From NCBI GenBank assembly GCA_965222115.1, contig CBDCTJ010000007.1, positions 160,001 to 224,000 on the forward strand: DNA of 64,000 bases, in the 5' to 3' direction. The notes below the pieces were generated by a model. The model did not search any database. It was not told where the DNA came from and was given only the letters and a program-made list of their open reading frames with translations. The stretch comes from Planctomycetota bacterium. GTDB lineage: Bacteria; Planctomycetota; PLA2; JAEUHO01. The translations under genes and the position numbers were made by a program. Of this stretch, positions 13,020-29,481 are shown one piece after another (the stretch's first letter is position 1; each line of letters starts with the position of its first letter).

Positions 13020-13091
13020 CACGCTCTCCTCGTTGCTCTGTAGTCCAAATGCGGACAAAGCGCGCGGCCTTGCCAGCGTAAGAAACGTCCG

Positions 13092-13751: not shown

Positions 13752-13941
13752 CCTCGTACTCCGCAGATTGGCGACGCTGCCTCCTGCGTTGATAGACTTT
13801 ACTCGACCGTCACGGGTACGTCATGCTCGTGCTGCCCGCCATTCTGCTCGGCCGACACGCCATAACTCGCTTTCGAGTTGCGGTCGGTTCGAGATGGAGC
13901 CGCGTGTTCAATCCGCAAACGAACATGACTCGTGAGCCACT

Positions 13942-14787
13942 CTAGCTGACAGGATCAAACCAGATCTCAATCTCATCCGTCAGCGGTCGATACCCAATCG
14001 CGGGATAAATCTTGTTGGTGGTCTTGTTGGCGAGATCGGTATATAGCGTCGTAAACGACTTTCCGCTATCCAACATTCGCGCGGTAAGCGCTGCCGTCAC
14101 GTTGGACGCATAGCCCCGTCCGCGATGCCTCGGTGGGGTGTACACAAGTGAAACCGAGGCGCCGCGCGGCGTTTTGCGTGACGTCATGGCGGTGCTCACG
14201 GGTTCACCGTCTACGTCCCAGAGAATCATGGCGCCGACACTGAGGGCGCGGTCTACATACGCCTCTACGTTGGTGGGCGCCTCGGACGCAACGTCCACCA
14301 TGAACGCCCGACACCAATCAATCAACAACAGACGGTCGTCAACTGTCGCTGGACGCATCGCGCCGTGAGTCGGCTGTGGTTCGATGACTTTATGACACAC
14401 GTAGATGCGCTGTGCCCGGCCTTCGCGCATGGTCACGGATCGCGAGCCTGACCACAACGCCGCGAACGCACGTGCGCGCGTGAGCTCGCCCTGAACGCCA
14501 GGAACCGCGTCGAGTCGCTCTGCAATGGAATGCGCGAGCGGAGCGATGGCGTCCATGGGGAGATCCGACAACAAGACCTTATGCCCGGGTGTGCGCATGG
14601 TGACGCCAACGATGTCGTCGGCTTCTTGCACGGTGGCGAATACAAACTCTTCGCCCTGGGCCTGTTCGCCCGCAAAACGCCTCGCAAGGCCGAGCAGTAG
14701 ACCATAGCGCTCTTCATCGGCTTCAAGAAACGGTGCAACGTGTCTAAGGAACGACGCGGCATCCTCATGGTGATGGACGGAGATCAT
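13942..14787 (-). CDS. GNAT family N-acetyltransferase
   Basis: VYTPPRHRGRGYAS, LYTDLANKTTNKIYPAIGY; ATGA overlap with DUF899. Confidence 0.9.
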   Translation of the reverse strand: MISVHHHEDAASFLRHVAPFLEADEERYGLLLGLARRFAGEQAQGEEFVFATVQEADDIVGVTMRTPGHKVLLSDLPMDAIAPLAHSIAERLDAVPGVQGELTRARAFAALWSGSRSVTMREGRAQRIYVCHKVIEPQPTHGAMRPATVDDRLLLIDWCRAFMVDVASEAPTNVEAYVDRALSVGAMILWDVDGEPVSTAMTSRKTPRGASVSLVYTPPRHRGRGYASNVTAALTARMLDSGKSFTTLYTDLANKTTNKIYPAIGYRPLTDEIEIWFDPVS

Positions 14788-15491
14788 GCGTAGAGATCGT
14801 GGTGCTTGACCCACGCCATCGAGAATGGCAAGCCGGCCTCGTCACGTCCATTGGGCACTAGGTCGAGCAAGTTGTAGATGCCGAGAATGTTCTCTAGCCC
14901 ACGAGCATAGGCGGAGTACGTGTGGTACACGGCATCGTCTTCACCCTTGGCAAACGCACTAATACCCGGCGCTTCCTCACCCATCGTTGCACGGCCTTGC
15001 TTGTAGTTGTAATAGACCTGCCCGGCGCGAACGTCTTCATCAGCAAACGACACATGGAAGTCCTGATTAAACGTGGTCTTGAGGGATGAAAACCACGGGA
15101 AGGACCACCCCATACGTTTCTTGAACGTCTCAAGCGCATGAACCGGCGCACGAGAAATCGTCACCATGGACACGTCTCGCTGCGCCAAGTGTTGCACAAG
15201 CGGGTTGTAGTGATCGGCACACATCGAACAAATCTTGCACCCCGATGGCCAGTCAGGCGCGAACATGAAGTGGTACACCAGCAACTGCGAATGTTGCCCG
15301 AACAACTCCGAGAGGCGCACATCGCCGCCGGGACCTTGAAACACATAGTCCTCTTCGACTCGCACCCAGGGCAACGCCTGCCGCGCCGCCGTCAGCGCCT
15401 CACGGGCCTTCGAAAACGCCTTCTCCTTGGCCAGCAACTCCTTGCGCGCTTCCGTCCACGCTTCACGGGTCACAACGGTGGGTTGATTCAT
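14784..15491 (-). CDS. DUF899 family thioredoxin-like protein
   Basis: ARKELLAKEK, LPWVRVEEDYVF, QLLVYHFMF, GCKICS, RMGWSFPWFSS, YHTYSAYARG. Confidence 0.92.
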   Translation of the reverse strand: MNQPTVVTREAWTEARKELLAKEKAFSKAREALTAARQALPWVRVEEDYVFQGPGGDVRLSELFGQHSQLLVYHFMFAPDWPSGCKICSMCADHYNPLVQHLAQRDVSMVTISRAPVHALETFKKRMGWSFPWFSSLKTTFNQDFHVSFADEDVRAGQVYYNYKQGRATMGEEAPGISAFAKGEDDAVYHTYSAYARGLENILGIYNLLDLVPNGRDEAGLPFSMAWVKHHDLYA

Positions 15492-15616
15492 GGCGGGCCT
15501 TTCGTTGAACGTCCGCCGAGAAATCTACCGCCTCCATTGCGCCGGGCCTGCTTTCGCAGGGACCGCAAAAGAGCAATCCGGCTTGGCGTGTCGCCGTTGA
15601 TGGCATTCGCGAAGCT

Positions 15617-17347
15617 CTAATCACCAAGTCCCATGGATCGAATGAATGGATTGGCCAAGGCCCATCGCGCCTCTGCGCTAGGCAACCACTGCCTGCGGGC
15701 AATGAGCCACTGCTTGTGTCCAAGCCCCAATCGAGCCTTGGCCCGCTCGTTATTCCACGCATACATTTTGCCAGGGTGAATCGCATGATCAATGTCACTG
15801 GCGTGGAGTGCGTCCCACCACGCGTCGTAGAATCTCTGCATACGACTGCAGTTGATTCCATCGACCTCAAAAACGCACGTGATGGGAAATCGTGTACACC
15901 CAGCATAGGCGCTTCCCCCTTTTACGAAGCGCATAGCCATGGCACCCGGAATCGGCCGTTCGTCCGTCAGGGCACGAAGGGCAAGATCCAGAACGGCGAC
16001 GGAATCCTTCGCCGCGACCGCAACAGCGGAGCTCGCAATCTTTCCTTTGGTGTCTGTCGGACCAAAAATGCAGGCAGGCGTGCCAATGCTTGTGTGGTTG
16101 GGCGGGAATCGTTCCTTTAGGAGTCGCGTAATCAGCTCGGGAATCGCGGCGTCCCAAAACTTTCGTTTGACCCAACCTCGGTCCAACGAATCAAACCGGC
16201 ATGTGAGTTCTACAAGGAGATCATTGGCATCTGGAACGTCAGGAAGCAACCCCGCGTTTTCGAGTTTCTTCATTGCCGCCTGAGTACTGAGTGACTGAAG
16301 GCAACCTGCCGCCTCCGCGCCTTGATCGCCTCCCCACGACTTGAGCATACGTGCCAAGGTCCGACTTACTTGAACCAATGGCGTAATGTGATCCTTCGTT
16401 GTGCATGTGGGCGAGGCACCCGATGTGTCCTCGTGCATCAACGTCACAAGTGTCTGATCATCGGCGCCGGGCGCGTAGGGGTTAATTAGAACTTCGAAGT
16501 GATACGGCGTCTTACCTGCATTAGGGTGACTCAATCCGGAGGGTTCACCCGCGCGCATGGCCTGCCTCATTGATTCATCTAACGGTAATGGATGACGGCG
16601 AACGGAAAGCAAGTACGGATCGCGAACTTTGATCATGACCGCCAAAATCACGCCGAATGAACCCAGTGAAACACGTGCGGCGTCGAAGTGGTCGGCCCGT
16701 TTAATGCGTTCAGCGCCTCCCAGCTCTCTCAACAGAGCATCGGTTGCAACCGGTCTATGCTCGGACTCAAGCCACCTTGTCTTGCCCGATCCGGTGGCGA
16801 TGTGAAGCCCCACGACGTAATCCTGCATGGATCCATCGTGAAGCGCCGCGCCATGAACACCGGTTGAGATCGCGCCCGCGATACTCTGACCGTCGCTAGC
16901 CCCTGAAACAACTAGGCTAGCCTTGCGTTTCGGGTCGGCTGCCAAGATCGAATTAATCGTGTTTACGGTTGTGCCGGCACGAAACAAGCGAAGGTGTGGG
17001 TCATGTACACCTACGTTCGTAAGGGGCAACTCGCCCGAGAAATCGTTATCTATTAACTGAATACCCGGCACCGCGGCAACCTTTGAGAACGACCACGTGC
17101 TTCCAATTGTGCGAAACTCAGTTCCCTGGGCAACCGCATCGGCAAGGAATTTCTGGATTCGAGCCGCGCCTACGCGGTGACGCTCGTATGCATCGCCATG
17201 CGCAGCGTCTACGAGCGTGAGCTTCGCCGAGCACACCTGTTTAAACGTTTTACAGTAGTTCCACCAACTTGTAGGACTGTCTGAGTTGCAATCGCTAGAC
17301 TGCGCATTCGGCTTAGATTGCGTATTCGGCTTGTCTTCGACAGTCAT
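15617..17347 (-). CDS. FAD-binding oxidoreductase (VAO/PCMH, aldonolactone oxidase-like)
   Basis: IGSTWSFS, AGTTV, GASDGQSIAGAISTGVHG, RVSLGSFGVI, C-terminal HPGK. Confidence 0.8.
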   Translation of the reverse strand: MTVEDKPNTQSKPNAQSSDCNSDSPTSWWNYCKTFKQVCSAKLTLVDAAHGDAYERHRVGAARIQKFLADAVAQGTEFRTIGSTWSFSKVAAVPGIQLIDNDFSGELPLTNVGVHDPHLRLFRAGTTVNTINSILAADPKRKASLVVSGASDGQSIAGAISTGVHGAALHDGSMQDYVVGLHIATGSGKTRWLESEHRPVATDALLRELGGAERIKRADHFDAARVSLGSFGVILAVMIKVRDPYLLSVRRHPLPLDESMRQAMRAGEPSGLSHPNAGKTPYHFEVLINPYAPGADDQTLVTLMHEDTSGASPTCTTKDHITPLVQVSRTLARMLKSWGGDQGAEAAGCLQSLSTQAAMKKLENAGLLPDVPDANDLLVELTCRFDSLDRGWVKRKFWDAAIPELITRLLKERFPPNHTSIGTPACIFGPTDTKGKIASSAVAVAAKDSVAVLDLALRALTDERPIPGAMAMRFVKGGSAYAGCTRFPITCVFEVDGINCSRMQRFYDAWWDALHASDIDHAIHPGKMYAWNNERAKARLGLGHKQWLIARRQWLPSAEARWALANPFIRSMGLGD

Positions 17348-17477
17348 TGCGTCCTCCTCTCACCATGCTTGCATTCACGTTAAGGTGTACGCGATGTATC
17401 GAATTTCCACAACCAGAATGCGCACAGTCCGACCAAATTTCGAAGGCTACAGGACCTTGCCGGCCCAAGATGGGGGC

Positions 17478-17840
17478 ATGATGAACTCCGGTAACCGCCC
17501 ATGGACCGACAAGCACTGCGTTCCCGCCAAGACATTGAAAGCGCCCATGGCCGCCGACGCCATTGCAACCGCGCTTGGCGACATTCACGAGGCGTGGCAA
17601 CTCTCAAGCGACGGGACGTGGATCTCGCGTCGTTATAGGTTTCGCAACTACTACGAGACCGTCTCGTTCGTCAACGCGGTGGCCTGGATTGCCCACACCG
17701 AAGATCACCACCCCGATATCGAATTTGGCTATCGCACGTGCACGATTCGCTATACGACGCACGCAGTGGATGGCATTACGGAGAATGACGTCACTTGCGC
17801 CGCAAAGATTGATGCGCTGATAACGCGCGACGAGGGATAA
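17478..17840 (+). CDS. phhB: Pterin-4-alpha-carbinolamine dehydratase
   Basis: YRFRNYYETVSFVNAVAWIAHTEDHHPDI...YTTHAVDGITENDVTCAAKID. Confidence 0.92.
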   Translation: MMNSGNRPWTDKHCVPAKTLKAPMAADAIATALGDIHEAWQLSSDGTWISRRYRFRNYYETVSFVNAVAWIAHTEDHHPDIEFGYRTCTIRYTTHAVDGITENDVTCAAKIDALITRDEG

Positions 17841-17845
17841 CCGGA

Positions 17846-19162
17846 TCACGGAGGCGTGGGCTGTGTCGCGGCGTCCAAGTCGAGGCGCCCGTGCCCGAGC
17901 AAACCCTCGTACTCCGGGTTGAGGAACAACATGAACTCGTCGGCGCCCTGCTGTATCGCCTGGACAACTTCTGATTGCCCACCGGGCCCCGAGGCCAGTT
18001 CCAACTCGCGCACGAGGGCATAGCACCCGGTAACAATCGCCGCGCTAAAGGACGTTCCCGACCACTTGCACGCTTTATCGTCTTCGACCGGGTAAGCACC
18101 GAGTAGCTCAAAGCCCGGCGCTGCTACGTCTACGCTCTCGCCATAGCTAGCAAAATCGCACTTGATGTCGCCTGGATCACCGGACGTGACCGACAGCGCA
18201 ATGCCGATTGTTGCGGGAAACGTAATTTCCTGATTGCCGGTGTTGCCCGCCGACGCGATCACAAGCACGGCATTGTCACGCGCATAGGCAATCGCTTGGC
18301 CAACAACGTAGGCTTGGTGCTCCATGCCGAGCGAGAGATTGATCACGTCTACACCGGCATCGGTCGCGCGCGTAATGGCTTCGGCCACGTGACTTGTGAG
18401 CCCCACATTGTCTGAGTTGAGAACGCGATAGGGAAGAATCTGCGCATTGGGCGCTAGGGCGAGAATCAAGCTGCTGACGAATGTGCCGTGGCCAAATCCC
18501 TCGTCGATGTATCCATCGTTGTCGTCGTCTACACCATTCATGACGTCGCTGGGATCGTCGTCATCGTCCACAAAGTCCCAACCGCCGGGCTCAATCTTTC
18601 CCTGCATGGCCACATGCGTCATCACCACGCCGGAGTCAATTACGGCCACGCGCACACCTGCGCCCGTTGCTCGCGAGCGCGCCTCCATGGCACCGATGCG
18701 AAGCAGTTCGGGTTGATCTTGAACGACCGCAAAGTCAAACAACTCCTCTCCGGCCGGTAACGTGGCGCCACCACCTTCCGGTGCCGACACAATGCGATCC
18801 AATTCACGATCCAAAACTCGGGTATCGCCTTCGATCTGATCGATGAAATCGTTTGCGGTGTCACTATCAGGAAATTCAACGACGAAGAAGTTGGTCTTGG
18901 GCACTTCTTTGATGGCCGTACTGCCGGTGCCATCGGCAATCTCCGTAACATCTTCGCCCGCCGCAGGCCGCACCAGCACGCGTGTGGGCTCTACGTTGGT
19001 ATCAAATGCACCGCCCCCGGTCGTGGGTTGAGGGTTGTTGCCACCGCCGCAAGCACCGAGGGTCATGCTCATCGCCAGCACACCCATGGCCAGCACACCC
19101 ATGGACACTGTCGTACCAGCGAACCAAAGCTTGCCCATCCGAACCAGTCGCACCGGGTTCAT
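17846..19162 (-). CDS. S8 (subtilisin-like) serine peptidase, lipoprotein
   Basis: Lipobox LGA-C; triad VAVIDSG / GHGTFV / SGTSFS; oxyanion ASAGN; ATGA overlap with the CHAT gene. Confidence 0.93.
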   Translation of the reverse strand: MNPVRLVRMGKLWFAGTTVSMGVLAMGVLAMSMTLGACGGGNNPQPTTGGGAFDTNVEPTRVLVRPAAGEDVTEIADGTGSTAIKEVPKTNFFVVEFPDSDTANDFIDQIEGDTRVLDRELDRIVSAPEGGGATLPAGEELFDFAVVQDQPELLRIGAMEARSRATGAGVRVAVIDSGVVMTHVAMQGKIEPGGWDFVDDDDDPSDVMNGVDDDNDGYIDEGFGHGTFVSSLILALAPNAQILPYRVLNSDNVGLTSHVAEAITRATDAGVDVINLSLGMEHQAYVVGQAIAYARDNAVLVIASAGNTGNQEITFPATIGIALSVTSGDPGDIKCDFASYGESVDVAAPGFELLGAYPVEDDKACKWSGTSFSAAIVTGCYALVRELELASGPGGQSEVVQAIQQGADEFMLFLNPEYEGLLGHGRLDLDAATQPTPP

Positions 19163-21957
19163 GGCATTCCTCCAGACAAGCGAAACGGCAATAGCCGCGC
19201 CGCCGTACGTTGATCATCCGCAACCATCGATAGTGCGTGCCCAAACGCACCCGGCACGTCCATTGTACCGGGCTCTGCATCGTCAAATTGTGCCGTACCC
19301 AGGCGGGCATAAAGCGCGGCCATAAGATCGGCGGTACTTTCATCATCGACGTCGCCCGAAGTCCACAGCACCCATCGAACGCCCGCTCGCAATAGTGTTC
19401 TCGGAAGCGCCCCCCAAGCCTCGGCCGCTGGCCCTGGCGGTGCGCCGGTTTGACAAGCCGCCAGACAAACGAGTTGTGTCGAGAGCCGCGCGGGCACATC
19501 GGCCGATGTAAGCCACCCATCGTGCAAGCGCACACCACCTAACGCGGGCGCGTCGGTTGATGCAACACCGTGCATAGCAAAGTGAACTGCATCTCGCTCG
19601 CCCAGCGCGCGAACGGCGGCGTCGAGCGTGGCGCCACGACCGGTGAACACATCACCATAGGCTCGCAGTGCGCGCGCTTCACGACGCGCCCCGTCGAGCC
19701 CCGCTTCACCCGCCACAATCGCCGCCAGACCACGGCCCACCTTGGTACGCGTTGAACGGGTGCGCGTTGAACGGCGCGGCAATCGCAGCGCTGGAACGCG
19801 GGCAACCGCTCGCGACGCCGCGAGGAGTCGGCCACCCACAGGCAGTAGTTCCCACGGCAAATCACCGAGCCGTTCATCGAGCACAAAGTAAAGATCTGCA
19901 CGAGGCGTGTCATGTCCCAGCGCTTCACGCCGCACGATCGGTGCGATCAATGAATCGCCAAGACGTGTCATTGCTCGCGCAAACGCACGCGCACCGGACG
20001 CCGAATCGGATACGCGTACGCGGTGGGCGTGAAACCGGAGCTCGCGTGCCGCTTTGTGGAGCGCGGGAAGCGAAATCAACGTGCCTACATCGACGATTTC
20101 GTGCTGCGTGCGCGTGAGGCAGCGCACGTCGTGACCTTGAACCCACACGTGAACATAGGTCTGATTGCCGACGGGATTACGAGTTGGCGCGTCGGTCGTA
20201 TGCGCGTGCGCGGGGCGCTTACGACGGCGTTCGTCCCGTCGCCACGATTCGGCAACAGCTTGCTCGACGGCACGAATTTCATCGATGAGTGCCATGCGTT
20301 GCGCAGGATTGAGACTGCGCGTGGATCCGCCTTGATCGGCCAGGGCGTCGTAGAGCACCGCAAGGCGTTTGCGTAATGCCGCCATGCGACCCGTTCCTGT
20401 ACGTGGCGACTTACCCGCCATAAAGCGCTTTAGCGCAAGGCCGTCAAGGATGCGCTCCGCCTCCTCACGGTCCGGTGTACGTCCGCGCTGCAACAGGGCA
20501 TCGATCAACAGCAGGTACGGATCCAGTTGCTCCAGCAAGAACTTGGTTCGGAGCCAAGGCCCCGGCAAGTCGCCACGCATGCTTTCGATTCGTGCCGTGA
20601 GCGTTCGCAGACGACGAATGGCGCGTGCGCGTTCGCCGTCCGAGAGTTCCAAACGGGCGCGCGCGGTTTCAGCGGCCACGGCGATCCATGGGTGCCCGGC
20701 CGATGCGCGTGGCAAATCGCTGAGCAGTGCGCGTGCCCGCGCGAGCTGTTGGATTTCAATCGCCACCACGATGCGCAACAGTTGCGTACGCCACACAACT
20801 TCCGATACGCCCGCCGTCTTCGCTCGCCGCCACAAGCGCGCCAAGCGACTGGCGTCGGGCAACGTTCCACTGAGCATATGAAGCTGTTCAAGCATCAGCA
20901 TGCCGCGGAGCACATACTCGGTACGCCCGAGTTCGGTGGCATCGTGAATCGCGCGCTCGAGTTGCGTTCGCGCGCGCTCAAGATCGGTATGAACGAGGCT
21001 TGCGCCTACGAGCCAGCGCGTTTCCACACTTTCCACCCGAGCATCAATGCGCTCAAATGTCTTGAGCGCTGCGCGAGCCTGCTTGACGGCGGAACCGTTG
21101 TCGCCCACGCGCCGCAACGCATCGGCCAAGTCCATCCGACACAAGGCTTCAAGACGCGCACGACCGTGTGACTTCGCGTCGGCAGCAATTTGCTCCAACG
21201 CGACGATGCCCGTGCCCGGTTCGCCCGCACGCACGCGCAGGCATGCCATGTTGTATTGCGCATGAAGTTTGCGAACCGCTTGCCCCGCGTCGCCGAACGT
21301 CTCTTCGGCATGCTCGAATCGTCGTTTCGCGCGCTGAAGGTGACCGGCATACATGAGCGCCACACCCGCATTCATCTTTGCAAGTGCCGCGGATGGCTCT
21401 TGGCCCAGGCGTCGAAATGCGCGCGCGGCCTTATCGCTTTCGTCGGCGGCTTCCTCCAAACGTCCAGCAAGTCGAAGCACGTTGGCGCGATTTGTGCGAA
21501 GAATGGCCCGATACAACGGTGCGCGTTTGCCTCGAATGCGAGACGCAGCGCGCGCGGCACAACGAAGCGCTTCGTCAATTTCGCCGGCCTGCCCCAGCGC
21601 GTCCACCGCCAACAACAGGGACTGCATCGCATGATCATGCTCGCCGTGGGCCGTGAGATCGACCTCGGCTTCCAACATGAGTTTCGATGCGTCGCTAAGC
21701 GAACCGCAGTGACGCAGTGCCATGCCACGCATCAATCGAAGACGGGCAACACCCAATGCATCGTGATTGCGTCGTGAGGCGACTTCCAGCGCATGCACGG
21801 CGCGCTCGCCCTGCTGCGGTTCACGTAACAAGATCTCACTAAAACGCTTGCGCAGTTCGGGCCACGGTACACCACGCTCTACAATTGCGCGCGCGAGCGA
21901 AGCGCGGTCAGCGGCGCTCGCTTTGAGGAGTCGATCGATTGTGGACACCGCCGTCAT
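19159..21957 (-). CDS. TPR-repeat + CHAT (caspase-like) domain protease
   Basis: Long TPR-like helical array; C-terminal LPWELL, VHFAMHG (His) and LAACQTG (Cys), L-DGWL, LLRAG..VL.T..DVDD. Confidence 0.9.
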   Translation of the reverse strand: MTAVSTIDRLLKASAADRASLARAIVERGVPWPELRKRFSEILLREPQQGERAVHALEVASRRNHDALGVARLRLMRGMALRHCGSLSDASKLMLEAEVDLTAHGEHDHAMQSLLLAVDALGQAGEIDEALRCAARAASRIRGKRAPLYRAILRTNRANVLRLAGRLEEAADESDKAARAFRRLGQEPSAALAKMNAGVALMYAGHLQRAKRRFEHAEETFGDAGQAVRKLHAQYNMACLRVRAGEPGTGIVALEQIAADAKSHGRARLEALCRMDLADALRRVGDNGSAVKQARAALKTFERIDARVESVETRWLVGASLVHTDLERARTQLERAIHDATELGRTEYVLRGMLMLEQLHMLSGTLPDASRLARLWRRAKTAGVSEVVWRTQLLRIVVAIEIQQLARARALLSDLPRASAGHPWIAVAAETARARLELSDGERARAIRRLRTLTARIESMRGDLPGPWLRTKFLLEQLDPYLLLIDALLQRGRTPDREEAERILDGLALKRFMAGKSPRTGTGRMAALRKRLAVLYDALADQGGSTRSLNPAQRMALIDEIRAVEQAVAESWRRDERRRKRPAHAHTTDAPTRNPVGNQTYVHVWVQGHDVRCLTRTQHEIVDVGTLISLPALHKAARELRFHAHRVRVSDSASGARAFARAMTRLGDSLIAPIVRREALGHDTPRADLYFVLDERLGDLPWELLPVGGRLLAASRAVARVPALRLPRRSTRTRSTRTKVGRGLAAIVAGEAGLDGARREARALRAYGDVFTGRGATLDAAVRALGERDAVHFAMHGVASTDAPALGGVRLHDGWLTSADVPARLSTQLVCLAACQTGAPPGPAAEAWGALPRTLLRAGVRWVLWTSGDVDDESTADLMAALYARLGTAQFDDAEPGTMDVPGAFGHALSMVADDQRTAARLLPFRLSGGMP

Positions 21958-22565
21958 CCGGAATGAATCTCCAGCGGCGGCGTGCGCCAGGCTTCGCCAA
22001 GCTCGTCGACAACTGCGATCACCAAGGGCTCGTTGGCATCAAGTTCTATCGGTACACTTCCGGTTCCCTCATCGTCTAGCTCAACGTCGATCACTTGAGG
22101 GCCATGAAGGACACGCACCGTTTGAGTAAGTCGCTCACCTAAACTCTGTTCGCTTTCGACTTGTTCACTTTCACGTACGTCGAGGGCAAGTACGAGCGTT
22201 ACGCGGTTGCTTGACGAAGCTTCTTGAACAGCATCCGGTGTGACTTCAACATCGAGCGATCCAAGCGCGTGCTCGAAACGAAAGAGGCGTGCTAGTCCCG
22301 TGCTGCGCGCCGCGGGCGCTAGCGAACCCCACGAATCGAACACGAGTCGCGCCACCGTCTCGAAGATGCTCTCCGGTTGTTGCGCGAAGATGGCTTGGGC
22401 TTTGCGCTTGGCGCGCGAAGGGCACCGTTCATCGTTGTCGTGAGCCGCCATCAGTTCGTGGGCCAGTCCTTCTTCGATTGACAAGTCCGCACGCGCGCGT
22501 CCCGATGCGCTATGCGCCAGGAAGGCAGCGAGCAGTGAATCGATGTTGAGGTTCGGCACGATCAA
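21954..22565 (-). CDS. Hypothetical protein, putative cytoplasmic anti-sigma factor / CHAT substrate
   Basis: Lies between the ECF sigma and CHAT genes, with ATGA coupling to CHAT; ARLVFDSW...ARS...RLFRF...LDVEV segment followed by a beta-rich C-terminus. Function is inferred from context only. Confidence 0.6.
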   Translation of the reverse strand: MIVPNLNIDSLLAAFLAHSASGRARADLSIEEGLAHELMAAHDNDERCPSRAKRKAQAIFAQQPESIFETVARLVFDSWGSLAPAARSTGLARLFRFEHALGSLDVEVTPDAVQEASSSNRVTLVLALDVRESEQVESEQSLGERLTQTVRVLHGPQVIDVELDDEGTGSVPIELDANEPLVIAVVDELGEAWRTPPLEIHSG

Positions 22566-22691
22566 ACACCCTTACAACGCACGACGAAGTCCTTGGATTC
22601 GTCGCCCTTGCCTCAATTGCCTGCCGTGCCTTGCCCATGACGGGTTAGACCGACTGGCTGGTTAGACCGACCGGAGCGGGCGGGTAGCAAC

Positions 22692-23486
22692 TTAGCGCGT
22701 GGAACGAACGGACTTCATCGTGCTAGAGGCGTCTCCGCGACCGCCTGATACATTTCGCCCGGATTTTCGATCCTGGACATCTTGCTTTGAAACAGTGAGT
22801 CTTGATGCAGGATCGAGTCTTGATGCGGGCTCGTCGAAGGGGAAGTTGAGCGCCGCCAACTCCCCCACCATTTTCTCAAGGCAGCGCTTGCGGGTGGGTC
22901 CGATCGAGCCGACCGGCATACCTAACTCCACGCTGAGCGCGCGGTAGTCCTGACTCTCCCTCAAGAAGAGAGCCTCAAGGATACGCCTACACTTTGAGGC
23001 CAACGCGCGCATGGCGCGATGCACCAAATGATGCCGTTCTTCCTGCACCAAGAGGTCTTCTGGAAGCGGCGATGGGCGCCGAAGCGTGTTCTCGCTCGCC
23101 TGTTCGTCGCGTTCGCGGACCGTGCGAATGCGACGTGCTACGCGCCATGATTCACGCCGTGCCGTCATTGCGATCCACCCGCGAACGCGTTCACCGTCTC
23201 GGAGTCGCCGAAGATTTCGAAACAGACGCAGGAACACGTCTTGCACAACGTCTTCTGCCGATGCGCCATCTAGACCTGAGCGCCGTGCAATAGCATGAAT
23301 GAGATCGGCATAGCGCTCGACCAGAGCGTCCCACGCCCCTTGCTCGCGCCCTAAACAACGACGAACCAGCTCGGCATCGTCATGGCGCACGCTGGATGGA
23401 CGATCGCCAATCTTGCTGCGATTCGATTCTCTGCGCTTCGCCTTGCTGCGATTCGAGTGATAGCCGTTGGATGCAGGTGACGTCAT
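22692..23486 (-). CDS. ECF sigma-70 family RNA polymerase sigma factor
   Basis: DAELVRRC..AWDALVERY, AEDVVQDVF, GWIAMTARRES (region 2); CRRILEALF...YRALSVELGMPVGSIGPTRKRCLEKM (region 4). Confidence 0.93.
   Translation of the reverse strand: MTSPASNGYHSNRSKAKRRESNRSKIGDRPSSVRHDDAELVRRCLGREQGAWDALVERYADLIHAIARRSGLDGASAEDVVQDVFLRLFRNLRRLRDGERVRGWIAMTARRESWRVARRIRTVRERDEQASENTLRRPSPLPEDLLVQEERHHLVHRAMRALASKCRRILEALFLRESQDYRALSVELGMPVGSIGPTRKRCLEKMVGELAALNFPFDEPASRLDPASRLTVSKQDVQDRKSGRNVSGGRGDASSTMKSVRSTR
22724..22753 (-). promoter_or_regulatory. Putative ECF promoter ATGTATCAG-N14-GCCTCTA inside the 3' end of the sigma gene
   Basis: Same bipartite motif as at 23646-23674; points at the anti-sigma/CHAT/S8 operon. 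Confidence 0.6.
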
Positions 23487-23645
23487 TGCTCTCTCTTCTA
23501 TAGCGCCATTTGCACGCCTGTGGGACAGGGATTTCCAATTCATACGACGCAAACTGATACACGGCACCTCGGTCGAGGTTTCGAATCGAGAGCAACGGCC
23601 GGGAAGGCGAACCCGCGCCGAAATCGACTGCCCGCGTCACGCGCG

Positions 23646-23674
23646 ATGTATCAGTGCGCGGCGAGCGGCCTCTA
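23646..23674 (+). promoter_or_regulatory. Putative ECF promoter ATGTATCAG-N13-GCCTCTA
   Basis: Ends 36 nt before ATG 23711 (AGGAGG RBS); matches the motif at 22724-22753. Confidence 0.6.
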
Positions 23675-23710
23675 TGCAAGTGGCCAATGGTGGCCCAGGA
23701 GGTCTCCCTG

Positions 23711-25036
23711 ATGAGACAAATCACACGATGGGTCACCCTCTTGCTGCCCACCGCACTGTTGATCGGTTGCGGCGGTGGCGGTGGTGGTGCCCCCAGCGGG
23801 TTGGACGTACTGAATCAATCGGCCAGCCTCGAAGGCGTTGTACTGGATGTGGACGGCGAGTCCGCGCAAGCCGGTGGCGTAGCGTTCACAGTGGAAGAGA
23901 CGGGCGAACAGGCGCTAACAGGCGTTGACGGCGCGTTCTACTTTGACGAACTGCCAGAAGGCGAAGTCAATCTTGTGCTCGATACCGCCAATTCGCTGGC
24001 CCTAAAACCCGATTTGAGCGATGCGTCGGATGATCTCGACGATGCAGATGACGAAAAGGATGAAGAAGAGGCCGACGACGATGACTCGAGTGATGACGAA
24101 GACGAAGCGGCAGACGACAGCGAGCGCGACGATCGTCGCATTCGCATTCGTCGCGTGCGTCGCGGCGAAGTCATCATTATCTACATTCGTATTGTGAATC
24201 GTCGCATTGTTGACATTCGCATCGTTCGCCCCGCGGATGACGACGGCGACGGTTGTGAAATCCATGAGCGCGAACTCGAACTCGAGATGCGCCGCACCGA
24301 TGCCAACACCGATCCCGACATGGAAGGCGAAGTGGAACTCTCCATTGAGTCCAACTGCGATCAGGAGTTTGAAGTCGAAGTTGAAGATGCCACCGTCGGT
24401 GACATTCTCGAGGCCGTCGTCATCAATCCCGAAGACGAAGAAGAGTCATTGGGCTTCCGCGTCGTAGAACTCGATGGCGACGCCGAATGGAAGATCGACA
24501 CCGGCGACGGACAAGCCCTGCCGTTCGGTAAAACACGTATCACTGGGCTCGGTCGGCACCGGGTTGTGGTTCGAGATGCCGAAGGCGTGGATCTCCTGCG
24601 CACGCGCATTCCTCCCTTTGGTGACGGCGATCCCAACTGCTTCTTCCTCTACGGCCGCAATCGCTTGATTCCGCAGGTCGATGACGTTGCCGGTTGGGTT
24701 GGCATCGCCGCCCGCGGGTGCGTACCCAACGATCGCGACCGTCTTGTGCAGCAGCTCTTCCGGGTGTATGGCGAAGGCCTTATCCCTGGGCGCGCCTACA
24801 ACATCTTCCTGGAAGATCCGGATGATCCCGGCACGTTGGTGGAGATTCGTTCGATGACCGCCAATCGCGATGGCGAAGTGGACTTGGCCTACAACACGGC
24901 TGAAGGTGACCGACTTCCGCTTGGCGCAGGCACCATTCGCGTGCTTGTGGGCAAGGAAGTCCAGATTCGCGCCGCGGCCACCGATCGCGTCATCCTGCGC
25001 GGCAAGGTCCCCATGCTCATGGGTGGTGATAGCTAA
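23711..25036 (+). CDS. Lipoprotein with carboxypeptidase-regulatory-like domain, acidic tract and duplicated C-terminal beta domain
   Basis: Lipobox LIG-C; EGVVLDVDG...TGVDGAFYFDELPEG; D/E tract then RRIRIRRVRR; repeated (D/N)TxxGxxLPxG domains. Confidence 0.75.
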   Translation: MRQITRWVTLLLPTALLIGCGGGGGGAPSGLDVLNQSASLEGVVLDVDGESAQAGGVAFTVEETGEQALTGVDGAFYFDELPEGEVNLVLDTANSLALKPDLSDASDDLDDADDEKDEEEADDDDSSDDEDEAADDSERDDRRIRIRRVRRGEVIIIYIRIVNRRIVDIRIVRPADDDGDGCEIHERELELEMRRTDANTDPDMEGEVELSIESNCDQEFEVEVEDATVGDILEAVVINPEDEEESLGFRVVELDGDAEWKIDTGDGQALPFGKTRITGLGRHRVVVRDAEGVDLLRTRIPPFGDGDPNCFFLYGRNRLIPQVDDVAGWVGIAARGCVPNDRDRLVQQLFRVYGEGLIPGRAYNIFLEDPDDPGTLVEIRSMTANRDGEVDLAYNTAEGDRLPLGAGTIRVLVGKEVQIRAAATDRVILRGKVPMLMGGDS

Positions 25037-25066
25037 CTCGCACTCGGCTACTTCCCCATGAACCCC

Positions 25067-25105
25067 TGCACACCGACACACCTCGTGTCGGTGTGCATCT
25101 TTTTT
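25067..25105 (+). terminator. Rho-independent terminator
   Basis: 13-bp perfect stem TGCACACCGACAC-acctc-GTGTCGGTGTGCA followed by TCTTTTTT. Confidence 0.85.
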
Positions 25106-25106
25106 G

Positions 25107-26529
25107 GAGTCTCCTGCTCTTCATGTGGGTCATGGCAACTTCGGATGGAGTTCGATGCCGCCGTTGCACAGGAACAACATAGAGATCAGCGCCTTGGCGC
25201 TGTGAAATCCGTATGCTCGTCGAGCCACCATGCGGAGCCGATTGTTGATGCCTTCCACGATGCCGTTGGTCATGCGGCAACTGATGTAGGCGATGATGCC
25301 ATCGAAGTGCTCCCGAAGCGTTTTGGCCAATCGCACGAACTGTTTGAGTTTGGATCGCGACGCCCAAGCCAGCCACTCACGAAGGGCGCGCCGAGCTCGC
25401 TTCGGTTGAAGGTAATCCAGTGCCGCACCAAGCGACTCCTTTAGGAGATAAGCGCGATACAGCTTCTTGTTCGTCCGCTCGATCTCGCTGAGCTTGGTCC
25501 GCTGCTTCGAATCGAGGTCACAGTAGTTCTTTAGGATTGCGTAACGCGAGTAGAAAATGAACCGACCTTGATCAGTGCCTCGAAGTTCTCGTAGCTGTTC
25601 GCGGCGTACTTCATCGAGTGCCACGCCTGCTAGCTTCTGGATGTGAAAGCGATCGAATACAACTTGGGCTTGAGGGATGTGTGTCGCAATGGCTTTGCGG
25701 TTCCATCCCGCCAGATCCGTCGTTACACCTTCGATCTTGGCAGCGTCCTCCGGCGATATCTCTTCGAAAAACTTGCGTAGCGTCGCTGAATCCTTCCCTT
25801 CGGCTGCCCACACCACGCGGCGACGATCGTGATCGACAACCAACGTAATGAAGTTGTGTCCGCGAAGATGGCTGAACTCATCCATGCCAATCCAGCGCAG
25901 ATTCGAGAGTCGGTCGGGATCCTGGCGTTTCGCGACGACACGCGTGACGATGGAACCAACCGTTCGCCACGTCACGCCCATTTGGACTGAGACCTGCGTC
26001 TTGTCCGTCGTTCGAACTAAGTACGCCACCATTTCCTCGAAATCCTTTGTGAATCGGCTCTGAGCCTCAGCCCACGGCACTTGCTCGGCTCGCACGCCGC
26101 AACGGGAGCAGTTCACGCGACGCGGTGAGTATCTGAACCACACTCGCGTAGAACCGATCCCCAGGTGGCGCCAAAACCTAGATCTCAGCCGATCGTAGCC
26201 CGGGGCCCTTTCCCCACACCCACTGCAACGAGGCAGGCGATGGCGCGGAGACACCGTGGCGATCACGCCACGCAGCGAAAAATCTACCGATCGGACGTAC
26301 ATCCCCGGGACATCGATCATCCGATGCAATAACGTGGTGGCGCGCATGGGGCTCCTCTGTTGATTTGTCGATTTCGTAACCAACAAAGAAACATGAGTCC
26401 CGTGGGCACCTCTAGGTTGTGACAGCCTGTTCTAACAAACATCATTTCTTTTCCTGCCGTCCGCGCCCTCTTAGGGGCGGCAGGACAAGAAATCGCAAAT
26501 GTACGACCCACACAAAGAGCAGTAGAGCC
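25107..26529 (-). mobile_element. Complete ISL3-family insertion sequence (1423 bp)
   Basis: 24-bp imperfect terminal IRs (GAGTCTCCTGCTCTTCATGTGGGT vs GGCTCTACTGCTCTTTGTGTGGGT, 19/24 match); 8-bp target duplication CTTTTTTG at 25099-25106 and 26530-26537. Confidence 0.92.
25130..26347 (-). CDS. ISL3 family transposase
   Basis: Zn finger CSGCG...CSRCG, IGMDEF, VFDRFHI, TNGIVEGINN.LR...RRAYGF. Confidence 0.95.
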   Translation of the reverse strand: MRATTLLHRMIDVPGMYVRSVDFSLRGVIATVSPRHRLPRCSGCGERAPGYDRLRSRFWRHLGIGSTRVWFRYSPRRVNCSRCGVRAEQVPWAEAQSRFTKDFEEMVAYLVRTTDKTQVSVQMGVTWRTVGSIVTRVVAKRQDPDRLSNLRWIGMDEFSHLRGHNFITLVVDHDRRRVVWAAEGKDSATLRKFFEEISPEDAAKIEGVTTDLAGWNRKAIATHIPQAQVVFDRFHIQKLAGVALDEVRREQLRELRGTDQGRFIFYSRYAILKNYCDLDSKQRTKLSEIERTNKKLYRAYLLKESLGAALDYLQPKRARRALREWLAWASRSKLKQFVRLAKTLREHFDGIIAYISCRMTNGIVEGINNRLRMVARRAYGFHSAKALISMLFLCNGGIELHPKLP

Positions 26530-26608
26530 CTTTTTTGGCTCGACGTTGATCCGACGCGAAGCGCCCGGCGCCATACGCTGGTAGCGTGACGCGTGTCGGA
26601 GAGCACGC

Positions 26609-27451
26609 ATGACCGATGTCCTTATCTTCGGCCGCGGCTGGATGGGCCACCAGCTTGCGGATCGAACCCCACAGTCCAAGCTCGTTGCCACGGACATCGC
26701 CGATGAAACGGCGGTGGCGAGCGTCCTCGATGCATACCGCCCAAACCGCGTGATTAACTGCGCAGGCAAGGCAGGCCGCCCGACCGTAGACAGTTGCGAA
26801 GACGATCCCGATGCCACCTACCGATCCAATGTGGTGGGTCCTATTGTGCTCGCGAGCGCATGCAGGCAGCGCGACATTCACTTCACACATTTGGGAAGCG
26901 GCTGTGTGTACGAGGGCGACAACGGCGGTCAGGGATACGCCGAGTCCGATCCGCCCAACTTCTTTGGAAGCCTTTATTCGCGCACGAAGATCCTTTCGGA
27001 AGCTGCGCTGCGCGATGTGGGCGCGCTACAACTTCGTATCCGCATGCCCATTTCGAGTACGCCGCATCCACGCAACCTGCTCACCAAACTCCTGGGCTAT
27101 CGCCACATCGTGAGCGTGCCCAACTCGGTGACCATTCTCGACGACTTCTGGGACGTTGCGACCGAGCTCATGACGCGTCGTGAAACCGGTGTCTGGAACG
27201 TTGTCAGTGATGGCGTGGAGTTGCATGAGACGCTGCTGACGCTGTATCGCGAAACTGTGAATCCGGAACACCGCTTTGAACTTGTGTCCGAACACACGCT
27301 TTCGGAGAGGCTCCGGGCGCGGCGCTCCAACTGTGTACTCAGCACGGCCAAACTACGCGCAGCAGGACTGGCCATGCCCTCGGTCGATGAACGGCTTCCG
27401 CAAATCGTTCGCGCCTATGGCAAACACGTTCAGCCTACTCAAGCCCGCTGA
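26609..27451 (+). CDS. NDP-4-keto-6-deoxyglucose 3,5-epimerase/4-reductase-like (NRS/ER-type, RmlD superfamily)
   Basis: [62 protein letters not shown]. Confidence 0.8.
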
Positions 27452-28308
27452 ACGAGTTGGTGAAGGTAGGCGCCGTACGACGAGCTTTGATACCGCGCCG
27501 CTTGGGCGGCAAGTTGTTCGCAATCAATCCATCCGTTTCGGAATGCAATTTCTTCCAAGCACCCAACCGATATGCGTTGCCGCTGTTCGATAGCATGTAT
27601 GAAGGAACTTGCTTGCAACATGGATTCGTGTGTACCTGTATCCATCCAAGCAATGCCACGTCCTAGCTGGGCCACCGTCAGCGTGCCTGCACCTAGGTAG
27701 GCACGATTGATGTCGGTAATCTCGAGTTCGCCTCGCGCAGACGGCGTGAGGGAGGAAGCAAGCTCAAGCACGCGATTGTCATACACGTAGAGGCCCGTGA
27801 CGGCCCATGGCGAACGCGGCTGCGAGGGCTTTTCCTCAATGGCGAGCGCACACCCCTGCGCGTCCAGGGTTACAACGCCATACCGCTCGGGATCATGCAC
27901 TTGGCAGACGAAAATGGTGGCGCCCGTCTCGCGCGCCGTGGCCGCAAGCAGATGGTCTTCGAGACCCGCACCAAAGAACAGGTTGTCGCCAAGGACAAGC
28001 GCCACGGCGTCGTTCCCGATAAACGCACGGCCGAGAACGAACGCCTGGGCAATGCCTTCGGGGCGTGGCTGCACCGCGTACGAATAGGCAACGCCAAACT
28101 GTGATCCGTCGCCCAACACGTCTTGGATACGCGGCATGTCCTTTGGGGTGCCAATCACCAAAATGTCGCGAATTCCGGCTTGTAGTAGCACACTCAGCGA
28201 GTAATAAATCAACGGCTTGTTGTAGATCGGCAAGAGTTGCTTGCAAACCGCATCGGTGACCGGCGCAAGTCGCGTCCCCGTGCCTCCCGCAAGTACAATC
28301 CCCTTCAT
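27439..28308 (-). CDS. rmlA: Glucose-1-phosphate thymidylyltransferase
   Basis: [15 protein letters not shown]...[44 protein letters not shown]. Confidence 0.96.
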
Positions 28309-28424
28309 GGGAGGATGCTCCATCGACGGACTTAGATTACGCTTGAGGCGCCGAGCGGAGCCGATCCGCTGCGGGGGTCGAATGCTAACGCTAGTAGCAA
28401 TCATCAACGTGAAAGAAGCGAGCG

Positions 28425-29462
28425 ATGACGTCCGTGACACCGCGCGATGAGACCATCGTTGTAACGGGCGGCGCTGGCTTTGTTGGCAGTGCTCTAGTGC
28501 GGCGGCTCTTGCGGCGCGACACCGCGCCGACCGTGATTTCGTTTGATGCACTTTCCTATGCGGGCCACCGCGAGAATTTGAGCGACCTCGACGACCCTTC
28601 GCGGCACACGCTTGTCGTGGGTGATATTGCAAATGCACGAGATGTTCAGCACTTGTTTGACGATACGAAGCCGACGGCACTCATCAATGTGGCTGCCGAA
28701 ACGCATGTCGATCGTAGCAACGTAAGCGCCATCGACTTCGTGCGCACCAACGTTCTGGGCACGCAGACGCTACTCGAGGCGGCTCGGCACGCAGGGATTC
28801 CCATGGTGCACGTTTCGACGGACGAAGTCTATGGGAGTCTGCGTGCGCCCGATCGTGCACGTCCTACATGTCCGCTACGCCCTACAAATCCGTATGCAGC
28901 CAGCAAAGCCGCGGGCGATCTCATGGCGCTCGCCGCACTCAAGACGCATGGCCAAGACGTCCGGATCACACGCTGCACGAACAACTACGGGCCACGCCAG
29001 ATGCCCGAAAAACTGATTCCACTCATGACGTTGCGGGCGCTCGCCGGGCAACCGATGCCGCTCTACGGCGATGGCCTTCACACGCGCGATTGGATTCACG
29101 TGGATGATCATGCCTCGGGCATTGTGGCCGCGCTTGACCGTGGCACGCCAGGCGCGATTTATCACTTCACAGCCAACTGCCCACGCACGAATCTCGACAT
29201 TGTTCGTGAGGTTACGAAGTACACCGGTGCGAGCGAATTGCTGATTCGACACGTCGACGATCGACCCGCACACGACCGGCGATACGCACTGGACGACGAG
29301 TCCACGCGCAGCGAGCTTGGCTGGGCACCCGTTGTTCCCTTTGCCTCAGGTCTTGAAGAGACCGTTCGGTGGTTTGGCGATCACCTCGACTGGTGCCGCG
29401 CCACCGGCTCCGAAAACATGCGCTCGTTTCTAAGAGCAAACTACGAAGCGCGCGGCACCTAA
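28425..29462 (+). CDS. rmlB: dTDP-glucose 4,6-dehydratase
   Basis: [66 protein letters not shown]. Confidence 0.95.
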
Positions 29463-29481
29463 CCACCGACTGGGACCGATC

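Follow-up and report, generated by a model that had tools for sequence, protein, structure and literature searches.

How might an ECF sigma factor be controlled when its neighbours are a small soluble protein of no known family, a caspase-like protease and an exported subtilase? This question is raised by a locus in a 64,000-nt stretch of planctomycete DNA (positions 160,001 to 224,000 of contig CBDCTJ010000007.1; hereafter the window). An initial annotation had described four co-oriented genes (sigma, partner, CHAT and S8), the last three coupled by ATGA overlaps, together with a divergent lipoprotein gene. All four ORFs do lie on the minus strand, the overlaps at 21954-57 (partner/CHAT) and 19159-62 (CHAT/S8) are present in the sequence, and the divergent gene was found in an ORF spanning 23654-25036 that encodes a lipobox. 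The features of this five-gene cassette, comprising an ECF sigma, a small soluble partner, a TPR-CHAT protease, an S8 subtilase lipoprotein and a divergent lipoprotein, are as follows.

17846..19162, minus strand: S8 subtilase, last gene of the operon (Peptidase_S8, E 3.6e-38)
19159..21957, minus strand: cytoplasmic TPR-CHAT caspase-like protease, 932 aa (CHAT, E 6.4e-28)
21954..22559, minus strand: small soluble partner, candidate anti-sigma, 201 aa from GTG 22559 (203 aa from TTG 22565)
22643..22672, minus strand: two copies of a 12-nt direct repeat in the sigma-partner spacer, seen in the sequence
22692..23390, minus strand: ECF sigma, 232 aa from GTG 23390 (alternative ATG 23486; longest ORF to 23567)
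22725..22752, minus strand: P_int, promoter-like TGTATC-N-GCCTCT within the sigma ORF at its 3' end, directed towards partner-CHAT-S8
23647..23673, plus strand: P_lipo, TGTATC-N16-CCTCT, 38 nt before ATG 23711 and followed by AGGAGG
23711..25036, plus strand: divergent acidic lipoprotein, 441 aa, with an LLIGC lipobox

These genes form a genuine, conserved five-gene signalling cassette. All of the 18 window-family loci have CHAT and 16 have the sigma; 13 have S8 and 13 the lipoprotein. Gene order and orientation are alike across the loci, and both sigma misses and most of the others fall at contig ends or in masked DNA. The cassette is carried by 14 of 24 genomes of the family, mostly in single copy. 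Deeper planctomycete families keep the sigma, a partner-like gene, CHAT and S8 in rearranged order, and all five large ORFs from these families carry CHAT by Pfam. None of 80 generic ECF loci taken as a control had homologues of CHAT, S8, the partner or the lipoprotein. A related-locus search using CHAT alone recovered no relative. The co-occurrence that the initial annotation had proposed to check in other genomes is thus borne out, the genes occurring as a unit both in relatives and across phyla. The cassette flanks encode GNAT, DUF899, FAD oxidase and sugar-nucleotide enzymes. An ISL3 transposase adjoins the cassette.

The sigma matches Sigma70_r2 (PF04542, E 4.6e-13) and TIGR02937 (74.1 bits, cut-off 42.9; residues 78-234 in long-ORF numbering), and a region 4 motif is visible in the sigma alignment; with sigma2 and sigma4 only and a family-model match, it belongs to the ECF (group 4) sigma-70 family. 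Translation most likely starts at GTG 23390 (232 aa), the same start as in 14 aligned relatives. The window sigma is 37-54% identical to 14 cassette sigmas, those of the relatives begin 5-10 residues ahead of region 2 and have no pro-sequence, and the longer N-terminal extension of the window ORF holds a 15-nt sequence repeated three times in tandem. A sigma-partner spacer of 126-132 nt was found in the window genome alone; in relatives there is either a 4-nt overlap, joining the sigma stop with the partner start in five of them, or a gap of at most 40 nt.

The CHAT domain (PF12770) of the predicted protease occupies residues 662-888. The motifs HFAMHG and LAACQTG, given in the initial annotation for the intact dyad, are present. 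The TPR matches fell below Pfam cut-offs. The dyad, His796/Cys835, is kept in 13 of 13 cassette homologues, and together with the PF12770 match it identifies the 19159..21957 product as a CHAT protease. This protein has no transmembrane or signal segment, with no 19-residue hydrophobic window above 1.6, and no sequence relative was found among solved structures at E<=1. The S8 protein begins with a lipoprotein-type signal peptide ending in TLGAC, containing a hydrophobic window and followed by a pro-region. Its Asp/His/Ser triad is intact as first described (D176/H225/S371) and is kept in all 11 cassette homologues aligned, so that domain match and triad together place the 17846..19162 product in Peptidase S8. 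The divergent lipoprotein, whose most likely start is ATG 23711, preceded by AGGAGG, combines an N-terminal CarboxypepD_reg-like domain with a poly-acidic tract, and sub-threshold CarboxypepD_reg matches were obtained for all six lipoprotein homologues scanned.

The partner had been described as a soluble 203-aa protein of no known family. Its solubility and lack of a family stand, given that no 19-residue hydrophobic window exceeds 1.6 and that no Pfam, NCBIfam or PADLOC match was found; its length in the protein collection is 201 aa (GTG 22559). As judged from sequence comparison, the partner family (201-203 aa) is narrow and without annotation: a search of 1.84 billion proteins gave no more than 25 cluster representatives at E<=1e-3. 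It was found in 22 of 400 Planctomycetota genomes and 28 of 401 sampled Actinomycetota, and the one match among 241 sampled Myxococcota was marginal (E 7e-4) and treated as noise. The AF2 model (pLDDT 82) predicts four helices, a low-confidence linker at residues 80-86 and a beta-sandwich at 91-192, corresponding to a helical N-half, an invariant D-S...R...R linker (D75, S76, R85 and R91) and a CarboxypepD_reg-like sandwich, for which 10 of 14 partner homologues gave matches, all sub-threshold.

No recognised anti-sigma signature was detected in the window partner: its single Cys, C46, is part of an invariant C-P, it lacks HxxxCxxC, the zinc motif of class I anti-sigmas, and it matched neither zf-HC2 nor other anti-sigma families. 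The HxxxCxxC pattern does occur in one sister-family partner, as HLASCARC, and one actinobacterial partner gave a weak zf-HC2 match below the cut-off (E 0.027). Comparison of the partner sequence, including that of an actinobacterial homologue, with solved structures returned chance-level rows only. Folded alone, the N-domain was predicted to form four helices (pLDDT 69.6), and a Foldseek search with this model matched no solved anti-sigma fold (best E 1.1). ESM Atlas scores for the N-half were at most 0.82, providing leads only, and in one row 17% of the members carried zf-HC2. Fold matches to the whole partner were generic Ig-like/CBM-like sandwiches (best VIA Z 9.3, rmsd 2.9, 92 aligned) and were set aside as having no functional meaning.

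In Actinomycetota, an ECF sigma lies directly upstream of the partner, on the same strand, in 18 of 20 fetched loci. No CHAT gene was found within ~5 kb of 7 of the 20 actinobacterial sigma-partner pairs, implying that CHAT beside the pair is frequent but not obligatory. The D-S...R...R linker motif is retained in these seven pairs, so its presence does not depend on CHAT being adjacent.

A bipartite motif, GTATC-N16/17-CCTCT, lies ahead of the lipoprotein gene and again within the 3' end of the sigma gene, ahead of partner-CHAT-S8. It was found at 30 sites, compared to 3.9 +/- 2.1 expected in shuffles (maximum 11), and all 30 have one of two spacings and occupy just two kinds of position. P_int recurs in this position in 15 of the 17 family loci holding the sigma 3' end, the P_lipo motif precedes the lipoprotein gene in 12 of the approximately 15 family loci holding that region, and at the family level the motif precedes the lipoprotein and partner genes, with none before the sigma gene. 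It also occurs ahead of partner-like genes in distant planctomycete loci, and a looser, uncontrolled pattern was found between sigma and partner in 8 of 20 actinobacterial loci. A whole-genome scan with the strict motif gave 12 matches, about the hand-estimated chance number, and indicated no wider regulon, only the two cassette sites properly preceding genes. An invariant 'VS...AS' in the sigma tail, considered as a peptide signal, was rejected as such, because it is the DNA motif GTA TCn ... GCC TCT read in frame; with a promoter-like motif inside a sigma coding end, a DNA signal can mimic a conserved protein tail. The motif appears to be a new observation and would be the promoter of this sigma. 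With a promoter-like motif shared by the lipoprotein gene and partner-CHAT-S8, the arrangement fits the earlier suggestion that an exported protease and a lipoprotein are induced by the sigma.

Huang et al. 2015 is reportedly a source for the ECF54 group and its conserved neighbourhood. The cassette sigma appears to be of the ECF54 type, an assignment based on context and similarity. Section 3.3 of PMC8999054 gives the ECF54 context as "carboxypeptidase, subtilase, CHAT" and describes proteolysis as proposed and no anti-sigma as known, and SFT86700.1 is an example named in that article; likewise, the ECF54 entry of PMC7826278 (Casas-Pastor et al. 2021) lists no anti-sigma and gives the distribution as actinobacterial. 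The guess that ECF surveys might already catalogue such neighbourhoods was therefore right: the gene combination is in those surveys (PMC8999054, PMC7826278), where its working is a proposal only. Like ECF54, the cassette places an ECF sigma that lacks any recognised anti-sigma beside CHAT, subtilase and 'carboxypeptidase' (CarboxypepD_reg-like) proteins, CHAT and S8 scoring above Pfam cut-offs and the CarboxypepD_reg-like matches sub-threshold. The actinobacterial loci also have the sigma (31-46% identical to that of the window), the partner family and the motif, the last in its looser pattern (8 of 20). In contrast with the actinobacterial distribution given for ECF54, the window genome shares its GTDB phylum, Planctomycetota, with a Tepidisphaeraceae MAG and has no WhiB. 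The ECF54 passages of PMC7826278 and PMC8999054 mention neither a +1 partner family nor a promoter, although their supplements may list a motif or a +1 gene.

Three further systems offer points of comparison. CalpL-CalpT-CalpS consists of a type III CRISPR Lon protease, an anti-sigma and an ECF sigma. As in the mechanism proposed below, an ECF sigma is freed when its soluble anti-sigma is cut by a cytoplasmic protease dedicated to the task; unlike the cassette, the protease is of the Lon rather than the CHAT type and the activator is cyclic oligoadenylate, for which no sensor domain was found in the cassette. PMC10028731, which refers to this system as CRISPR-T with a Lon protease, also provides, in its account of Csx29-Csx30-CASP-sigma, a precedent for a protease cutting a soluble anti-sigma. 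The cassette resembles this craspase in that Csx29 is a cytoplasmic TPR-CHAT protease, in having a soluble two-domain protein (the N-part of Csx30 binds an ECF-type sigma), and in sigma-dependent promoters within its own locus, here predicted from the motif. It differs in having no Cas7-11, CRISPR array or Csx31 and is not associated with type III-E; RNA-guided activation is impossible. In agreement with the initial annotation, the window contains no CRISPR-like array, and the genome encodes no Cas1 nearer to the cassette than ~76 kb. Csx30 is moreover far larger than the 201-aa partner, which has no detected similarity to any family, and the cassette outputs are an S8 lipoprotein and a CarboxypepD_reg lipoprotein. 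In the DdvA-DdvS system of Myxococcus xanthus, as described in PMC11506125, an ECF sigma is likewise under an anti-sigma associated with a TPR-CHAT having a His/Cys dyad, and CHAT-mediated cleavage, by self-cleavage of DdvA, is proposed as the releasing step. According to the same account, however, DdvA is a single membrane-spanning protein whose zinc anti-sigma domain lies inside and whose TPR-CHAT is periplasmic, and it depends on RseP, whereas the cassette partner and CHAT are separate genes with cytoplasmic products, the partner lacking a zinc motif, and are thus not of the DdvA type.

Our leading reading, to which we assign a probability of roughly 0.45, is a self-contained ECF54-type cassette in which the partner holds the sigma, a signal-activated CHAT removes the partner, and the sigma fires its own promoters. 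The partner, as a degenerate, zinc-less soluble anti-sigma, would keep the sigma inactive, and TPR-CHAT would be the signal-activated protease that removes it, possibly by cutting its conserved flexible linker near the invariant Arg85. Freed sigma would then read the two copies of GTATC-N16/17-CCTCT, one driving the divergent lipoprotein gene and the other, in the sigma 3' end, partner-CHAT-S8. With two such promoter copies, the envelope would receive a lipid-anchored subtilase and a CarboxypepD_reg-like lipoprotein as the outputs, while partner made anew would provide a reset and extra CHAT an amplification. Binding of the sigma by the partner, its anti-sigma role and its cleavage by CHAT are what we infer from this arrangement. 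Counting against this reading are the partner's lack of a recognised anti-sigma signature, the retention of its linker motif in pairs with no CHAT found within ~5 kb, and the family-level placement of the promoter-like motif ahead of the lipoprotein and partner genes rather than the sigma gene.

Since CHAT and S8 lie behind a sigma-type promoter, they could instead be outputs only. The partner would then be an ordinary soluble anti-sigma answering a cytoplasmic cue without CHAT, and CHAT, S8 and the lipoprotein a regulon for envelope or extracellular proteolysis, e.g., protein feeding or surface remodelling. The position of P_int ahead of partner-CHAT-S8, the 7 of 20 actinobacterial sigma-partner pairs that lack a nearby CHAT, and the predicted export of S8 and the lipoprotein are all consistent with this, but a cytoplasmic 932-aa TPR-CHAT with its dyad kept in 13 of 13 homologues is hard to picture as an envelope effector, ATGA couples its translation to that of the partner, and it is present in 18 of 18 family loci; we consider this alternative unlikely. 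It is distinctly improbable that CHAT processes or degrades the sigma itself, with the partner serving as an adaptor or CHAT regulator rather than an anti-sigma. A proposal of this kind is reported in section 3.3 of PMC8999054, the ECF54 listing of PMC7826278 includes no anti-sigma, and the partner has no recognisable anti-sigma domain; however, the 'tail motif' at the sigma C terminus is a DNA rather than a peptide motif, relatives' sigmas have no pro-sequence, and in two phyla partner-like genes lie directly downstream of the sigma, the classic anti-sigma position. A stand-alone anti-phage or abortive-infection system, with the caspase-like protease as killing or alarm effector like CRISPR-linked CHAT proteases, is very improbable: the closest mechanistic precedents for CHAT with an ECF sigma are defence systems (PMC10028731, PMC11506125 and, reportedly, bioRxiv 10.1101/2023.06.23.546230), and an ISL3 transposase lies alongside, but PADLOC was blank for sigma, partner, CHAT and lipoprotein and returned only a generic subtilase model for S8, the flanks listed above include no defence genes, the cassette is mostly single copy in the 14 of 24 family genomes that have it, and the closest Cas1 is distant.

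Returning to the self-contained cassette, a narrower and rather doubtful proposal is that the partner family is the ECF54 regulator, a new zinc-less soluble anti-sigma class with a helical head and a CarboxypepD_reg-like sandwich that is destroyed by a stand-alone TPR-CHAT at the invariant A-x-R-[G/S] linker. ECF54 is one of the ECF groups without a listed anti-sigma, for which 'proteolysis' has been guessed, and the locus supplies concrete parts: a +1 partner family that spans two or more phyla and has a linker as candidate cleavage site, a caspase-like protease of the cytoplasm whose dyad is intact, and a promoter motif marking the outputs. If the partner is a CHAT-cut ECF54 anti-sigma, the cassette would be the CRISPR-free equivalent of the craspase sigma arm and might be its forerunner, and a sigma-dependent promoter hidden in the sigma coding end would have reset and amplification built in. 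Cleavage of the partner by CHAT, if it occurs, would make the control of sigma factors by caspase-fold proteases a signalling device of bacteria in general rather than of CRISPR alone.

In line with the initial annotation, the list of open reading frames, together with Pfam and NCBIfam searches, placed four co-oriented genes and a divergent gene at the following positions:

17846-19162, minus strand: S8 subtilase (Pfam Peptidase_S8, E 3.6e-38)
19159-21957, minus strand: TPR-CHAT protein (Pfam CHAT, E 6.4e-28, residues 662-888)
21954-22559 or 22565, minus strand: partner, a small protein of 201-203 aa (ORF list; no Pfam match)
within 22692-23567, minus strand: ECF sigma factor (Pfam Sigma70_r2, E 4.6e-13; NCBIfam TIGR02937 over its cut-off)
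23654-25036, plus strand: ORF of the divergent lipoprotein gene (ORF list; no Pfam match)

Both ATGA overlaps among the partner, CHAT and S8 genes are real, and the CHAT dyad motifs (HFAMHG and LAACQTG) and the S8 D/H/S triad motifs are present, the dyad being kept in 13/13 homologues and the triad in 11/11. The partner, proposed to be soluble, contains no membrane-like segment, nor does CHAT, and both S8 and the divergent protein carry lipoprotein-type signal peptides. A PADLOC search of the cassette proteins returned a generic subtilase model as its sole match. The reported absence of CRISPR or cas genes nearby also held: the window contains no CRISPR-like array, and about 76 kb separates the cassette from the closest Cas1 in the genome. 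About 37 kb past the window end, at L154 (G000:C7:259864-263604), a Cas1 match lies within a 998-aa open frame, far longer than the usual Cas1 and possibly a fusion.

Alignment with 14 relatives indicates GTG 23390 as the most likely start of the sigma gene. If translation began at ATG 23486, the resulting N-extension would include a 15-nt unit present three times at 23412-23456 (TRF score 55); this translates as SNRSK repeats, which favours the downstream start. For the lipoprotein, the most likely start is ATG 23711, preceded by AGGAGG. The protein encoded from there (23711-25036, plus strand) has 101 acidic and 45 basic residues, and a tract of about 45 residues, nearly all Asp or Glu (residues about 95-140), separates a CarboxypepD_reg-like head from the remainder. 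Convergent with this gene and about 90 nt past its end is a complete ISL3-family transposase (25130-26386, minus strand; DDE_Tnp_ISL3, E 9.8e-69; HTH and zinc-ribbon domains also present). Just past the S8 gene lie a DUF899/thioredoxin-like protein (14784-15491, minus strand) and a 576-aa FAD-linked oxidase (15617-17347, minus strand; FAD_binding_4 sub-threshold). The flanks of the cassette are not common to relatives: the DUF899 and FAD-oxidase genes are not kept beside it, and the oxidase query found no match in any of the 18 loci fetched from the family.

To survey the neighbourhoods of partner homologues, we searched with the partner itself. A word-indexed search recovered only the query and one protein at 55% identity; when 1.84 billion cluster representatives were searched exhaustively, 25 matched at E<=1e-3 (179-201 aa). 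The partner was found in 16 of 41 genomes, a set made up of 40 relatives and the genome of the window, and in 14 of the 24 belonging to the window's own family. Eighteen partner-bearing loci were fetched and compared with the window's proteins, and the genes were found to co-occur as a unit: CHAT in 18/18, sigma in 16/18, and S8 and the lipoprotein in 13/18 each, with the order invariably lipoprotein, divergently followed by sigma-partner-CHAT-S8. Missing genes correspond to short contigs or masked DNA, except in locus L012, which has a different gene upstream of sigma. In a control, none of 80 loci around unrelated ECF sigmas contained any of the four other cassette genes. These five genes very probably constitute a conserved cassette of the ECF54 type. 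The suspicion that similar neighbourhoods had already been catalogued proved correct, as the passage on ECF54 in PMC8999054, with Casas-Pastor et al. 2021 and Huang et al. 2015 as its sources, names carboxypeptidase, subtilase and CHAT domains as conserved neighbours and on that basis proposes control by proteolysis. PMC7826278, where it treats these groups, calls ECF54 actinobacterial, sets it next to ECF58, a planctomycete group, and assigns neither a putative anti-sigma.

Two residue pairs stand out in the otherwise variable C-terminal tail of sigma: 'VS', which is invariant, and 'AS', which is nearly so. At the DNA level they read GTA TCn ... GCC TCT. This bipartite motif, [CT]GTATC-N16/17-CCTCT, recurs 30-70 nt upstream of the lipoprotein start codon, in the same direction as the gene. 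The motif scan placed two sites in the window:

22725-22752, minus strand: P_int, in the 3' end of the sigma gene and facing partner-CHAT-S8
23647-23673, plus strand: P_lipo, before the lipoprotein gene

Across 243,219 bases (window 13001-30000 and the 18 loci), a loose pattern detected 30 sites, every one with one of two spacings, compared to 3.9 +/- 2.1 (maximum 11) in 50 block shuffles. The motif is present in the sigma 3' end in 15/17 loci and before the lipoprotein gene in about 12/15, and three loci have a second copy 270-380 nt farther upstream of the lipoprotein gene in the same direction (L017 10392-10419, L019 4546-4573, L024 10050-10077). The sigma-partner spacer of the window, at 126-132 nt, holds a 12-nt direct repeat (two copies, about 22643-22672, minus strand). 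Relatives lack this spacer, their two genes overlapping by 4 nt or lying at most 40 nt apart, so that the distance from P_int to the partner start is about 160 nt in the window and about 30-40 nt in relatives. Applied to the entire 4.55-Mb genome, a strict pattern returned 12 sites, approximately the number expected by chance on a rough estimate, of which only the two cassette sites properly precede genes. The simplest reading is that the motif is the target promoter to which this sigma would bind, and that its regulon is the cassette itself.

In a 401-genome sample of the window's phylum, profile A1, built on the partner family, had matches in 15, and the broader profile A5 matched 22 of 400 in a sample centred on a Tepidisphaeraceae MAG. 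The second sample recovered contigs and coordinates identical to those of the window's relatives, which assigns the window to Planctomycetota. WhiB was not found in the window's genome. The five components recur in rearranged form in sister families and in planctomycete families farther away, where sigma can diverge from partner-CHAT-S8 and the lipoprotein can share their strand; the large ORF of these loci is a CHAT protein in 5/5. Among the distant loci, the motif precedes a partner-like gene in two and the sigma gene in another. An Actinoplanes-centred sample of Actinomycetota yielded matches in 28/401 genomes (27/400 without one unpublished genome, G591), a Chloroflexota-centred sample in 4/241, and a Myxococcota-centred sample a single, marginal match in 241. 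Eighteen of 20 fetched actinobacterial loci have an ECF sigma directly upstream of the partner on the same strand, 31-46% identical to that of the window. A looser pattern, run without shuffles as a control, placed the motif between sigma and partner in 8/20 of these loci and at most 250 nt upstream of sigma in about 5/20. Of 130 candidate ORFs there, 97 were scanned against Pfam; these had 330 aa or more, lay no farther away than about 5.2 kb and passed a codon-position GC filter. CHAT was found within about 5 kb in 13/20 (12 by Pfam, L126 by tblastn) and S8 in 12/20 (11 by Pfam, L129 by tblastn), counts from which smaller or farther genes could be missing because of the size and distance filter. 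An adenylate/guanylate cyclase-AAA_16 protein adjoins the sigma-partner pair in two of the actinobacterial loci (L132:5650-7533 and L141:7549-9294); in L132 it occupies the expected place of CHAT and no CHAT ORF was found, while L141 also has a CHAT ORF nearby.

In an AlphaFold2 model of the partner (26 homologues, pLDDT 82), predicted helices at 6-16, 28-41, 48-59 and 65-84 are followed by a beta-sandwich at 91-192; confidence is low at 80-86. D75, S76, R85 and R91 are invariant across the family; D75, R85 and R91 remain so when distant members are added, and actinobacterial partners share the pattern ...DS...[GA]-x-R-[GS]...R-x-L-x-F. The sandwich is generic, Ig- or CBM-like (best VIA match Z 9.3, rmsd 2.9, 92 residues aligned), with sub-threshold CarboxypepD_reg matches in 10/14 homologues. 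The helical half has no Pfam match and no relative among solved structures; folded alone it reached pLDDT 69.6, with nothing better than E 1.1 in Foldseek and only low scores in an Atlas look-up. An HLASCARC sequence in one sister-family homologue and a zf-HC2 match below cut-off (E 0.027) in one actinobacterial homologue are the only hints of a possible anti-sigma ancestry. On gene position, coupling and analogy, the partner is a candidate anti-sigma, and it is probably the cognate regulator of this sigma.

The initial annotation had interpreted these genes as a CRISPR-independent module in which CHAT cleaves the partner to free sigma. This interpretation is partly supported. The conserved cassette, with its sigma-type motif before both the lipoprotein gene and partner-CHAT-S8, argues for a module; the part assigned to CHAT is weakened by the 7/20 actinobacterial sigma-partner pairs without a nearby CHAT. 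Those pairs, and the position of CHAT and S8 behind a promoter-like motif, favour the main rival explanation, in which both proteases are outputs only. In the full model, to which we assign a probability of about 0.45, the soluble partner would hold sigma, the cytoplasmic TPR-CHAT protease would remove the partner on some cue, and sigma would then drive the lipoprotein gene and partner-CHAT-S8, giving exported outputs, reset and amplification. That CHAT cuts the partner is rather doubtful as a step of its own. CalpL/T/S offers a mechanistic precedent for this model. Two others are Csx29/Csx30/CASP-sigma and DdvA/DdvS, as outlined in PMC10028731 and PMC11506125, respectively. The cassette differs from all three in having no CRISPR link, separate genes for a cytoplasmic partner and protease, and no zinc motif.

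Full-text literature searches on CHAT together with ECF and anti-sigma factors, on ECF54, on ECF58, and on ECF and CHAT in Planctomycetes turned up no experimental work on a cassette of this kind. The cassette is a Planctomycetota member of a kind already catalogued, to which the present analysis adds a partner family that crosses phyla with an invariant linker, a promoter-like motif embedded in the coding end of the sigma gene, and a cassette that appears to be its own regulon.
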